A stretch of 42,908 bases of DNA from Candidatus Hermodarchaeota archaeon (GCA_016839365.1 JAEOUH010000004.1:1-42908), one strand, 5' to 3'. Counted from the stretch's first letter, positions 18,258-22,165 are shown. Numbers and translations: made by a program. Notes: a model not told the origin generated them from the letters alone.

Positions 18258-19238
18258 GTGACAACTATGGACGAGATTGATAAGAAACTCATATTCGAAC
18301 TACTCGTTGATTATCGGGCTTCTTATCAGTCCATGGCGAAGAAACTCGATTTATCTGTGAACGGTGTGAAGAAACGGTTTGAACGGTTGAAAAGTGTGGG
18401 TATCATTCGTGGTGGGCTTTTGGTACCTGTGCCTAGGATGCTAGGGAGTGAGGAGTGGGTGGCGATTTTACGCATGGAAGGATCGAGTACCTCAGAAGAA
18501 CAGCTGGGTAGAGTGGGCGCACACCGTTTGGTTCGAGCAGGGAGTATTTTAACCGATGGAAGCATGCTATGCTTTGGTAGTGTTGGAGGAGCAAAAGACC
18601 TTCAGGAGATTGGGAGTTATTTGCGCCAAGTCCCTGGAGTAGTAACTGTAGAATTTCACACCGTTTTGAATGATCCAGGAAAGAAGTGTGAGTTGACTAT
18701 GGCTGATTTGAAAGTCCTCCGCTGTTTGCGCGAAGAGCCGCGAATACCAATCAGCGAGATTGCCCAACGAACTGGGTTGACACCACGTCGCATCCGGAAA
18801 ATACTTGTAAATTTATTTGGGGAAAACGGTTCGGAGATAACTTTTTACTTGAATTGGGAACCGCGAGGCGTGGCGCACCCCAATGAGGTGTGTTTTCGTC
18901 TGATGGTTTCGTGGAATTTAAACGCCGGCGGATATACGGCATTCATTATTAGGGTTAAGCATGCAGAAGGCAGTGAAGCCCGAAGTCAGATTGTCAATTG
19001 GTTGAAACGCTCATATCCGTTTGAGTTCTGGTATGCTTATGCGTCGGCCTTCGAACCTGTGATTTTTTGCATATTCATGGTTGAGCATTTACGTGAATCA
19101 ATTGACATAGCGAGTGCTGTGACACAATTACCGGAAGCCACTGATGTGTATCCGATTTTCGGATATCCCACGAAAGTCTTTCGAAGCCAAATAGATGACT
19201 ATTTTGAAACACTCTTCAAACAGCTAGATGCGAAGTGA
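18258..19238 (+). CDS. Lrp/AsnC-like regulator with duplicated HTH-effector modules (paralogue 1)
   Basis: MDEIDKKLIFELLVDYRASYQSMAKKLDLSVNGVKKR and a second HTH DLKVLRCLREEPRIPISEIAQRTGLTPRRIRK. Likely ATG 18267. Confidence 0.85.
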   Translation: MTTMDEIDKKLIFELLVDYRASYQSMAKKLDLSVNGVKKRFERLKSVGIIRGGLLVPVPRMLGSEEWVAILRMEGSSTSEEQLGRVGAHRLVRAGSILTDGSMLCFGSVGGAKDLQEIGSYLRQVPGVVTVEFHTVLNDPGKKCELTMADLKVLRCLREEPRIPISEIAQRTGLTPRRIRKILVNLFGENGSEITFYLNWEPRGVAHPNEVCFRLMVSWNLNAGGYTAFIIRVKHAEGSEARSQIVNWLKRSYPFEFWYAYASAFEPVIFCIFMVEHLRESIDIASAVTQLPEATDVYPIFGYPTKVFRSQIDDYFETLFKQLDAK

Positions 19239-19438: not shown

Positions 19439-20416
19439 TTGGGAAGTATGGACGAAATTGACAAGAACATCATCTTCGAGTTGTCTGTCAATTATCGTGT
19501 ATCATACCAGACTATTGCAAACAAATACAACCTCTCGGTGAATGCGGTAAAAAAACGTATACAGAAGCTCAAAAGTGACGGGATCATTCGTGGGGGGTGG
19601 TTAGTTCCGATGAATGCAATGTTGGGGATGGAATCTTGGGTTGCGCTGGTAAGAACGGAGGATCCGATTCCCTCGGATGCATTCTTGGATGGTATTGGAG
19701 CACACAAGTCGATCGATTCAGCAAGTATTCTCACGGATGGAAGCATTCTCTGCTTCGGACATTATGCTGGTGCCAAAGGTCTTGAGGAAATTGGTACATT
19801 CTTACGTCAAACTCCAGGTGTTATATCGGTCGATTTTCACACAATCTTATCTGAACCAGGTATGCGTTGTGAATTATCCTTATCAGATTTGAAGGTATTA
19901 CAGTGTTTACGACAGGACCCAAGAATGTCTATCAGTGATATATCTCAAAACACCAGGCTTACACCTCGTCGAATCCGAAAAATCATCCAAAATTTGATTG
20001 ACGAAAAAGGCTCCGAACCAGAACTCTATCTGAACTGGGACTCACGGGGTGGAAGCCGGCCTGATCAAGTGTCCTTCAAGCTTAGTGTGAATTGGGACTT
20101 GAATGCAGGAGGTCACACGGCCTTTATGATAATCATCCGTCACGAAGAAGGTAGAGAATTCCGATCTAAGATTGTTGATATTCTTAAAGAGACCTATCCA
20201 TTTTGGTTCTGGTATTCGTATGCATCGGCCTTTGAACCAGTCATTTTTTGCGTATTTGTGGTTGAGCACATGAGGGAAGCAGGCGATATAATTGAGACCT
20301 TGCGGCAAACACCCGAGGTTGTTTCCGCTAATGCAATTTACGGATATCCAAGCCGACGATATCATAGTGTCATTGATGAGTATTTTGAACAACTATTCAA
20401 ACGCCTAGAAGGCTAG
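19439..20416 (+). CDS. Lrp/AsnC-like regulator with duplicated HTH-effector modules (paralogue 2)
   Basis: Colinear with paralogue 1 (MDEIDK, SILTDGS, LTPRRIRK, LNAGG, YASAFEPVIFC). Likely ATG 19448. Confidence 0.85.
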   Translation: MGSMDEIDKNIIFELSVNYRVSYQTIANKYNLSVNAVKKRIQKLKSDGIIRGGWLVPMNAMLGMESWVALVRTEDPIPSDAFLDGIGAHKSIDSASILTDGSILCFGHYAGAKGLEEIGTFLRQTPGVISVDFHTILSEPGMRCELSLSDLKVLQCLRQDPRMSISDISQNTRLTPRRIRKIIQNLIDEKGSEPELYLNWDSRGGSRPDQVSFKLSVNWDLNAGGHTAFMIIIRHEEGREFRSKIVDILKETYPFWFWYSYASAFEPVIFCVFVVEHMREAGDIIETLRQTPEVVSANAIYGYPSRRYHSVIDEYFEQLFKRLEG

Positions 20417-20519
20417 GCAGAACAGGTCGGTTTTTGCCAACTATTGTCAGAATGAATCGTTATTTACCGCCACCAACCTTGTGAGGAGATATATAGCTTG
20501 ACTATTATAAAAAAATCAA

Positions 20520-20641
20520 CCGGGTCTTCAAGGTTCCTTCCCCTCCATTTCGGCACTTCCCGGTCCAAAGAAAATGGGTGGCAATGGACCTTTTTAGGAC
20601 AACGGATTCGGAGTTTACGTTCGATTTCCTTGAAGACCCGG
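20520..20641 (-). ncRNA. Putative 122-nt structured RNA element 1 (3' of peptide gene 1)
   Basis: Perfect 14-bp terminal inverted repeat CCGGGTCTTCAAGG; inner CUCCG/UGGAG and GGUCCA/UGGACC helices; U-tract directly downstream on the minus strand. Confidence 0.55.
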
Positions 20642-20704
20642 CTTTGGTCAGTGTCCAAGGTCCGTGTCCCTGGTGTCAGTGTCGCTCCCTAACAGTAAGT
20701 GTGA

Positions 20705-20848
20705 TTAGCGTCGTGATGTGACGATTGCAAAGTTGATTCGATCGCGGGGAGTGCCTCGTGGGTTCTTTGCTCCTGTCACAGCGCGTTCTGCAACAGGCAT
20801 TTCGACAATTTTCTTCTTTGTGTGTCCGGTTTCTTTCTTTTCGACCAT
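20705..20848 (-). CDS. Small basic peptide 1 (47 aa), unknown family
   Basis: MVEKKETGHTKKKIVEMPVAERAVTGAKNPRGTPRDRINFAIVTSRR*; GGAGGT SD; homologous to peptide 2. Confidence 0.8.
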   Translation of the reverse strand: MVEKKETGHTKKKIVEMPVAERAVTGAKNPRGTPRDRINFAIVTSRR

Positions 20849-20908
20849 TTTCTATCAACCTCCTGCCCATGCAGGACAATGATGTATAACCCAGAAATTG
20901 CCTATTAT

Positions 20909-20991
20909 TCGATGGGAGCTCGTCAGTGCAAAAATTCGATGAAAAGAGAAGAAGCGAGCCAACTTTTGCACTCCTTGGTGCAAAAATTCGA
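20909..20991 (-). promoter_or_regulatory. Conserved upstream boxes of cassette 1
   Basis: TCGATGGGAG-N6-AGTGCAAA and TTTTGCAC-N6-GTGCAAAA, repeated 518 bp away; GTGCAAAAATTCGA occurs twice (20926, 20978). Confidence 0.7.
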
Positions 20992-21021
20992 AAAAAAAGG
21001 ATTTTAGGAAATAAGGGGGGA

Positions 21022-21144
21022 ATTGGGCCCGCACAAGCTCCAAACGGAAGGAACTAAGAAGTGTGGACATCCGCTGCCGGAACGCTGCTACGCCGATCCC
21101 CCGTCAACGGATGAAGAGGTGATCGGAGGTTCTGCAGGCCCAAT
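21022..21144 (-). ncRNA. Putative 123-nt structured RNA element 2 (3' of peptide gene 2)
   Basis: Terminal stem AUUGGGCCUGCA/UGCGGGCCCAAU with one U.G pair; CUCCG/UGGAG; AUCCGUUG/CAGCGGAU. The wobble pairs form only on the minus strand; a U-tract follows. Confidence 0.55.
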
Positions 21145-21202
21145 GTCTTCGCTGCGAGCTGAATCTGGTGATCGTGTGTTCACCATGAGAATTCCTCACA
21201 GC

Positions 21203-21340
21203 TTAGCGTTTGCTTAACGCCAGCATGACTGCGTACCGAGTACGAGGTTTCGCAGTCGGGTGGGGGTTGCGGCAGCCAGCGACAAGGCGCTCACAAGCTG
21301 ACATGTTTTCGAGTTTCTTGTGTTTGTAGGATTTGGCCAT
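21203..21340 (-). CDS. Small basic peptide 2 (45 aa), unknown family
   Basis: MAKSYKHKKLENMSACERLVAGCRNPHPTAKPRTRYAVMLALSKR*; GGAGG SD; homologous to peptide 1. Confidence 0.8.
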   Translation of the reverse strand: MAKSYKHKKLENMSACERLVAGCRNPHPTAKPRTRYAVMLALSKR

Positions 21341-21426
21341 CTCAAATCCCTCCAATTGTGTTTGTCACCGGAATCCCCGGGGGGGAACCCCGTTGCAATG
21401 AGATATGGGTAAGGATTTGATATGAA

Positions 21427-21503
21427 TCGATGGGAGTAAAATAGTGCAAATGTCCGCGGTTCAAGCTCAGAAATCAAGAAATTTTGAACCGTTGTGTGCA
21501 AAA
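21427..21503 (-). promoter_or_regulatory. Conserved upstream boxes of cassette 2
   Basis: TCGATGGGAG-N6-AGTGCAAA (21427) and TTTTGAAC-N6-GTGCAAAA (21482), with the same spacing as cassette 1. Confidence 0.7.
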
Positions 21504-21643: not shown

Positions 21644-22165
21644 ATGCCAAAACAAGATGTCAAGCCGATCGAGGGTCTACAAGCATTACCCCCATTTCCT
21701 GTAGTGTTTGTCTCCGTGCAAGAGAACGTAATGACAGCAGCAGCGTTTCATTTCTTTTCATTCAATTCCCTTTGCGTGATGGTATGAATCCGACCACAAA
21801 CACACACCTTTAGCTTACTACAGCAGGCTAAAGAATTCGGAATAAATATTCCAACGATAACCCAGCTAGAAGAGGTACGTGTCTGTGGGTCCGTGTCAGC
21901 TCGGGATGAAGGCAAATTTGAGAAAACCGGATTAACCAAGATGAAAGGGAAAGTCATCGATACCGTCCTCGTGGCGGAGTGCCCTGTGAACTTGGAGTGT
22001 CGCGTCGTACACGAAGTAGAGTTTGAAGGGAGCCATCGATGGTTTGTCGGTGAGGTCGTTGCAGCTCATGTAGCCGAGGATTACCAGCGGGATCAGGCCC
22101 TGATGTATTGGATGCGAGAGTATCGCCGCGTTGGCCAAGTTTTACTCACCATCAAAGGGCAGTAA
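21644..22165 (+). pseudogene. Flavin reductase-like (flavoredoxin family) gene with an in-frame TGA
   Basis: MPKQDVKP...PFPVVFVSV..NVMTAA...CVMV*IRPQTHT...EFGINIP...CGSVSARD..KF...ECPVNLECRV...GSHRWFVGEV; TGA at 21785-21787. Confidence 0.75.

Follow-up and report, generated by a model that had tools for sequence, protein, structure and literature searches.

Structured 3'-terminal RNA domains in the messengers of paralogous small basic proteins from a Hermodarchaeota genome

RNA-level regulation is very poorly known in the Asgard group, the archaea most closely related to eukaryotes. Small RNAs of the CpxQ/SroC type are bacterial 3'-UTR sRNAs, and 6S RNA requires the bacterial sigma-70 RNA polymerase holoenzyme; to our knowledge, archaea have no sigma-70. 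Nor do we know of any requirement for a hairpin in archaeal transcription termination. Two reports ascribe archaeal termination to U-tracts together with aCPSF1 (PMC8716108, PMC7515710), and a third describes the Rhodobacter ccaF1-CcsR1-4 locus, where 3'-UTR-derived sRNAs are located behind a small-protein gene (PMC8034643).

The window, by which we mean the whole stretch of 42,908 nucleotides analysed here, is contig C5 of a 2.2-Mb MAG (G000) that is 84% complete. Its minus strand carries two units built in the same order: a leader of 30–40 nt, an ORF of 45–47 codons, a spacer of ~60 nt, an element of ~122 nt with a long helix, and a U-tract. The first unit comprises ORF1 (20848-20705), which is preceded by a GGAGG Shine-Dalgarno sequence 8 nt upstream, encodes a 47-aa basic protein (MVEKKETGH...INFAIVTSRR) and ends in UAA; spacer 1 (20644-20704), which contains GGACCUUGGACRCUGAC and is moderately conserved (mean column conservation 0.75); element 1 (20520-20641); and a U7 tract (20509-20515), an archaeal oligo-U terminator signal 2–4 nt past the 3' arm of the closing helix. 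The second begins with a 5' untranslated leader (21341-21380), followed by ORF2 (21340-21203; GGAGGG Shine-Dalgarno, a 45-aa basic paralogue MAKSYKHKK...AVMLALSKR, UAA stop), spacer 2 (21145-21202; conservation 0.71, with a small hairpin UGGUGA..UCACCA), element 2 (21144-21022) and, 24 nt past it, a U8 tract (20991-20998). In both units the distance from the ORF to the element is 58–63 nt, and both of these small minus-strand ORFs have a strong Shine-Dalgarno sequence.

This arrangement resembles ccaF1-CcsR and the CpxQ/SroC-type systems in that one transcript carries a small-protein ORF and, behind it, a conserved structured RNA ending at a terminator, that pyrimidine-rich tracts occur in some copies and that the cassette has been multiplied by paralogy. 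Unlike those systems, the elements are archaeal and bear no sequence or family relation to them, and each is a single end-paired domain of ~122 nt rather than several short hairpin sRNAs. The peptide family is also unrelated to DUF1127 (no Pfam match), and release by processing, as in ccaF1-CcsR, is for the elements only putative.

All motifs named by the first-pass annotation of this DNA are present where it had placed them. Read on the minus strand, element 1 is closed by a perfect 14-bp stem, CCGGGUCUUCAAGG/CCUUGAAGACCCGG, which flanking A-U and G.U pairs extend to a 16-bp helix P1 over 20518-20643 (5' arm 20643-20628, 3' arm 20533-20518). Within it lie the pairings P2, CUCCG/UGGAG, and P3, GGUCC(A)/(U)GGACC, a purine-rich 3' strand, GGGGAAGGA, and four invariant blocks, CCGUUGUCC, GGUCCAUUGCCACCC, GGACCGGGAAGUGCC and UGGAGGGGAAGG. 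Element 2, AUUGGGCCUGCA ... UGCGGGCCCAAU, is closed by a P1 stem of 12 bp, one pair of which is U.G and would read C.A on the other strand; it also has the same P2, CUCCG/UGGAG, and a long inner hairpin, AUCCGUUG../..CAGCGGAU, with a sub-helix GAUCG/CGUUC.

Compared with 200 dinucleotide shuffles, minus-strand folding is the stronger (z = -2.55 for element 1 and -3.81 for element 2) and plus-strand folding gives z = -1.71 for both, so that the comparison of both strands with shuffled controls, suggested by the first-pass annotation as a check, came out in favour of the minus strand. Because each strand of this 43-kb window has about 70 stems of 11 bp or more over a span of 60–150 nt when G.U is allowed, a closing stem in a single sequence is weak evidence alone, and the case for both elements rests on comparison among genomes.

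BLAST searches with a 941-nt region detected homologues in 10 of 14 other genomes of the same genus and in none of 26 others. Every one of the 10 same-genus homologues of element 1 has a closing stem (11–17 bp), as has every one of the 9 homologues of element 2 (10–13 bp), and in all 19 cases the stem starts 57–66 nt past the stop codon, which establishes a fixed position behind the ORF. The alignment of element 1 (A2, 10 sequences) has 94% of cells paired and five P1 pairs changed on both sides, a value equalled in 0 of 500 shuffles; U-A has become C-G in two genomes, for example, and in G006 A-U/A-U/G-C has been replaced by G-C/G-C/A-U. When the partner strand is shifted by one column, pairing falls to 51%. 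The alignment of element 2 (A3, 8 sequences) likewise has 94% of cells paired, with 10 pairs, located in P1 and in the three-part inner hairpin, changed on both sides (again 0 of 500 shuffles). The compensatory changes demonstrate both closing helices and the inner helices of element 2; the closing stems that had been noticed in one sequence are thus kept in the relatives, and covariation is present. Several one-sided changes in P1 of element 1 yield G.U pairs. As the first-pass annotation had argued, such pairs are diagnostic of the minus strand, since they would be A.C on the plus strand, and a covariance model of element 1 scores 148 bits on the minus strand vs 25 bits on the plus strand; the RNA is that of the minus strand. 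The comparison supports the view that elements 1 and 2 are genuine structured minus-strand RNA domains, selected for structure.

Element 1 is the best-conserved stretch of the locus, with a column conservation of 0.87 vs 0.82 in ORF1, 0.75 in the spacer and 0.45 in the downstream DNA; across nine genomes 70 of its 122 columns are invariant, vs 64 of 144 in ORF1. These values support selection of element 1 for sequence as well as for structure. P2 and P3 are nearly invariant, and therefore neither supported nor contradicted by covariation; the candidate helix CGUUGUCC/GGGAAGUG is invariant in 12 sequences. The covariance model gives 105–148 bits on ten copies of element 1 from nine genomes, 59–62 bits on the diverged copies of G001 and G004, and 16–28 bits on the opposite strand. 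Each genome of the genus has one copy (two in G014), always syntenic. With the model we found no match in four genomes of the sister genus, nor in 132 others from the phylum; most of these are incomplete MAGs, so the absence applies only to the genomes searched. In 9 of 10 homologues of element 1, six or more consecutive U lie within 2–6 nt of P1, and P1 is part of the MFE fold of the complete 3' UTR in all of 10 species.

The proteins encoded by ORF1 and ORF2 are Lys/Arg-rich paralogues; their core, M..ER...G..NP...A, is invariant, and their C-terminus, (S/T)R(R/H), is basic. Conservation across nine genomes at codon positions 1, 2 and 3 is 0.86, 0.90 and 0.69 for ORF1 and 0.89, 0.90 and 0.65 for ORF2, i.e. 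the third position is relaxed, which argues that both are coding. Sequence-profile searches of Pfam, NCBIfam and PDB returned no match for the small proteins, the ESM Atlas yielded nothing usable (best score 0.82), and the AF2 model of the peptide (pLDDT 66) displays three short helices at low confidence. Near-identical public proteins are annotated as "hypothetical" and come from Asgard MAGs labelled Promethearchaeota or Thorarchaeota. Within one Asgard family, 17 of the 18 other genomes contain the protein family (1–6 matches per genome), and a search of 381 further genomes of the phylum found it in none. We rejected the idea of coding through the elements themselves: an ATG-led frame behind ORF2 enters element 2 in several genomes, with frame and length that vary by species, and over element 1 no ORF is kept across relatives.

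Both units are represented among RNA contigs from four wetland metatranscriptome runs (four studies), which are 90–99% identical to the window and therefore come from close relatives. Their cover falls into two blocks, unit 1 running from 20522, 20525 or 20532 to 20849 or 20857 (with stops at 20516-20532) and unit 2 from 21028 or 21029 to 21368, 21376 or 21378, and thus the two units are separate RNAs of ~340 nt, whose 3' ends probably coincide with the foot of the closing helix. In element 2, the contigs of three runs end at 21022-21029, where P1 has its base, and not at the U8 tract. Cover is absent at 20858-21027 and upstream of 21380, which we do not take as a sign of silence. Single contigs of 314–365 nt span ORF, spacer and element, and every element-covering contig of sufficient length continues into the spacer and ORF: ORF and element are transcribed together. 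Sequencing-adapter letters abut 20525, 21368 and ~21380, so these are real fragment ends, and those at 21368 (X17) and ~21380 (21378+2, X19) are RNA 5' ends in the leader of unit 2. At both adapter junctions the first read is on the plus strand, which under the usual stranded libraries fits minus-strand RNA and is a weak hint only. The contigs are a weak guide to ends, and levels, exact termini and a released fragment are beyond their reach. Because they bridge ORF and element and their stops coincide with the helix base, each element forms the structured domain at the 3' end of a minus-strand mRNA of ~340 nt that is transcribed separately, is monocistronic and encodes a tiny basic protein. 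The first-pass annotation had proposed stable, processed non-coding RNAs; the location 58–63 nt behind codon-periodic ORFs and the contigs of four runs that bridge ORF and element do not support a free-standing RNA of this kind. One contig of X20 (record 15; 21022-21304) runs from the 3' end of element 2, through UCCGGUU (the end of P1 in that relative), back into ORF2 at 21304; this single, circular-like unitig could reflect circular RNA, template switching or an assembly artefact.

Tails of related design are found behind further paralogues. Cassettes in G002_C29, G011_C27 and G005_C65 have closing stems of 13–15 bp located 51–53 nt past the stop codon, and paralogues of the "...RRGSKW" type are followed by a shorter hairpin on CCCGUUGUG/CACAGCGGG and then by a U-tract. 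A pattern search (GGGTCTTC-N85-115-GAAGACCC) revealed element 3, a third end-paired subfamily of ~120 nt, which occurs once in G000 (C33:4765-4884 = L086:1501-1620, plus strand) and in five relatives (orthologous loci L079, L080, L083, L085 and L087). Its helix P1, GGGUCUUCCGG/CCGGAAGACCC, encloses AUCCGUUGUCUACC..GGUCCAC and a loop rich in C and U, and a U-rich tail follows. About 190 nt separate the element from the "...MTSRRGSKW" paralogue in front of it, and this interval contains a 27-aa mini-ORF whose product ends in ...LLFTRR. At least three subfamilies, with interiors that otherwise differ, thus share two motifs, AUCCGUUG and GUCCA, as well as the sequence of the helix, CGGGUCUUC/GAAGACCCG; these common features suggest sequence-specific recognition beyond mere pairing. 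All subfamilies are located behind small-protein paralogues, the peptide paralogue and the element being linked at more than 25 loci, and the family is confined to one family among the Asgard genomes searched. Hybrid cassettes exist in G001 and G004, with an element resembling element 1 behind an ORF2-like gene. Paralogues from the sister genus g2 (L060, L061 and L062) carry a plain GC-rich hairpin, GCCGCCAGC..GCUGGCGGC, and no ~120-nt element, and therefore the elaborate tails seem to have arisen within genus g1.

No Rfam family covers these elements: cmscan, run over the whole window at the gathering score and over 20450-21500 at E <= 10, gave no family match to them, the one match at E <= 10 being a meaningless C/D-box hit (E = 7.5) on the other strand and outside the elements. 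The likeness to 6S or Y RNA proposed earlier comes down to general shape, a rod with internal loops whose ends are paired into a long helix. The 6S RNA models gave no cmscan match, and the elements measure 122–123 nt vs ~180 nt for the 6S rod with its central, open-promoter-like bubble; the sigma-70 holoenzyme, for which 6S mimics a promoter, is absent from archaea. A Ro/TROVE gene (PF05731) was not found in G000, 84% complete, while controls matched, and the elements are mRNA tails, unlike the separate genes of 6S and Y RNA. Archaeal SECIS elements are similar in being conserved 3'-UTR structures of archaeal and Asgard mRNAs at a set distance from the ORF. The SECIS models of Rfam gave no match, and the elements are ~3 times larger; ORF1 and ORF2 have no in-frame UGA and both end in UAA, and therefore the elements are not SECIS. 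We also rejected a K-turn (L7Ae site) at the P1/P2 internal loop of element 1, where AA or CA rather than GA stands 5' of CUCC and the tandem G.A signature is missing, and a C/D box, because we found no C box to go with the CUGA that is conserved in spacer 1. A pseudoknot of the loop CCACCC with GGGAAG or GGAGGGG would comprise 3-bp matches at most, and all of its columns are invariant. The elements are a new RNA family, from a poorly studied lineage, of a general kind (the structured, terminator-proximal 3'-UTR domain) that is already known; they provide a covariation-supported RNA domain that is tied to a lineage-specific small-protein family and transcribed in natural sediments.

We consider it about an even bet (probability ~0.5) that the elements are cis-acting modules that define and protect the 3' ends of the ~340-nt small-protein mRNAs and contain a binding platform. 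The GC-rich closing helix (consensus CGGGUCUUC/GAAGACCCG), beside the oligo-U terminator, would set the mature 3' end and hinder 3'-to-5' exonucleolytic decay, which would render the small-protein mRNAs stable and abundant. The interior could be where a partner, most likely a protein, binds in a sequence-specific manner, because it is hyperconserved in element 1 and because AUCCGUUG and GUCCA are common to all subfamilies; such a putative platform would add control of mRNA stability or translation. The elements resemble intrinsic terminators and 3' stabilising stem-loops in having a GC-rich helix directly before oligo-U, at the base of which the RNA contigs stop. Element 1 has the typical hairpin and U-tract (16-bp P1, then U7 after 4 nt), with 9 of 10 homologues alike; element 2 corresponds only in part, its U8 tract being 24 nt away. 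The "loop" is here, unlike in those stem-loops, a conserved, structured interior of ~95 nt, and the helix sequence CGGGUCUUC is conserved across paralogous subfamilies, which indicates a specific recognition factor. If the tail does control 3'-end formation or stability of the mRNA, archaea would offer a case of 3'-end definition assisted by a hairpin. What weighs against the cis-acting module is the distance of the U8 tract beyond P1 in element 2, the near-invariance of P2 and P3 in element 1, and the fact that a plain hairpin suffices for 3' protection: the g2 paralogues have just a plain GC hairpin, and so protection by itself leaves the conserved interior of ~100 nt unaccounted for. The hyperconserved interior therefore brings two rival explanations into play.

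The first rival is that the ~122-nt domain is cut from the mRNA and acts in trans, by base pairing with other mRNAs, as a 3'-UTR-derived sRNA; candidate pairing sites would be the anti-Shine-Dalgarno-like C/U tracts of elements 2 and 3 (CCUCCGAUCACCUC, CCCCUCC) or the loop UUGCCACCCAU of element 1. A stable, closed 3' structure is typical of such sRNAs, element 1 is more conserved than ORF1, and the pyrimidine-rich tracts recur in homologues of elements 2 and 3. There is also the bacterial precedent of CcaF1/CcsR, a small-protein gene followed by 3'-UTR-derived sRNAs (PMC8034643). However, all element contigs that are long enough continue into the spacer and ORF, and the sequence of the C/U tract in element 2 varies among species, so that we regard action in trans as possible but rather unlikely.

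According to the second rival, the encoded basic peptide binds the structured tail of its own mRNA, either for autoregulation or to form an abundant RNP (both putative). The strict linkage of peptide paralogue and element across at least three subfamilies and more than 25 loci agrees with this idea, as do the Lys/Arg-rich composition and invariant ER..G..NP core of the peptides, the conservation of the interior of element 1 in sequence, beyond pairing, and the retention of an element of this type behind the ORF2-like gene of G001 and G004. The same hybrids can be held against it, for they show no strict correspondence between the type of peptide and that of the element; moreover, g2 has the peptide with a plain hairpin only, and the peptide model, with its three short helices, has low confidence (pLDDT 66). 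Taken together, peptide binding seems to us slightly less probable even than action in trans. A bolder version, to which we give no better chance than to a trans-acting sRNA, envisages a lineage-specific Asgard RNP with the peptide on its own tail, where the CGGGUCUUC helix together with AUCCGUUG/GUCCA would form a recognition code; the RNA would then be abundant and have a dual function, as messenger and as structural or regulatory RNA, with at least three cassettes per genome under the tandem Lrp-like regulators described below. A tail that bound its own peptide or acted in trans would represent a new small RNP or a dual-function RNA. The RNA of ~340 nt and the 46-aa peptide provide a defined construct for probing, binding and reporter assays.

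A third proposal, made by the first-pass annotation, is a conformational switch coupled to termination, in which two mutually exclusive folds decide whether transcription stops. The alternative pairing of element 2, CCGAUC(A)CCUC/GGGGGAUCGG, does exist and is even the single-sequence MFE in G000, but it is poorly conserved, with 70% of cells paired vs 92–96% in the competing hairpin, which also has compensatory changes; two conserved, exclusive helices were not found. Spacer 1 offers a second possible partner: GGACCUUGGAC (20654-20664) is complementary to GUCC-UAAAAA-GGUCC of element 1 (20586-20600, minus strand), and a helix between them could form transiently, during transcription, in competition with P3. 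Despite this complementarity the MFE of the full 3' UTR retains P1 in 10 of 10 species. The next gene downstream of element 1 in G000 is convergent, so that no co-oriented gene there needs control of read-through, and Rfam yielded no riboswitch match. Given the 70% vs 92–96% pairing and the constancy of P1, the switch is weakly founded and we consider it improbable; coupling to termination is plausible only in the sense of a closing helix abutting a U-tract. Least probable by far is an origin as remnants of MITE-like, non-autonomous mobile elements with terminal inverted repeats, or as chance inverted repeats, which the perfect 14-bp terminal repeat, the size of ~120 nt and the frequency of such stems by chance in a single sequence would fit, but which we reject because each element matches only itself in the 2.2-Mb genome (and element 1 occurs once per genome in the genus), in a syntenic position at a fixed distance from the stop codon, with compensatory changes, strand-specific G.U pairs and transcription together with the ORF. 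The earlier interpretation therefore stands insofar as it saw structured minus-strand RNA that is not an IS/MITE remnant, the latter having been named there as the finding that would speak against it; what it took for 6S- or Y-like genes are mRNA tails, and the switch that it envisaged is not conserved.

Outside the RNA elements, between element 2 and ORF1, lies a palindrome, TTTTGCAC-N6-GTGCAAAA (20963-20986), upstream of unit 1. It is found in the same place in 8 of 8 relatives that have both units, and is therefore likely to be an operator or activator site for unit 1. One further stem on the minus strand matches element 1 in length, a G.U-rich, long-range stem of 16 bp at 21794-21888; it is the only other one, lies in a region of overlapping ORFs and is probably due to chance. 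On the plus strand, 18258-19238 and 19439-20416 encode tandem paralogues of 325–326 aa, Lrp/AsnC-like proteins with a duplicated winged helix. A gene of this kind adjoins the peptide cassettes in at least seven relatives, in either orientation, and also a class-III paralogue cassette (L059), and the tandem Lrp/AsnC-like proteins are, on this genomic context, candidate regulators of the peptide cassettes.
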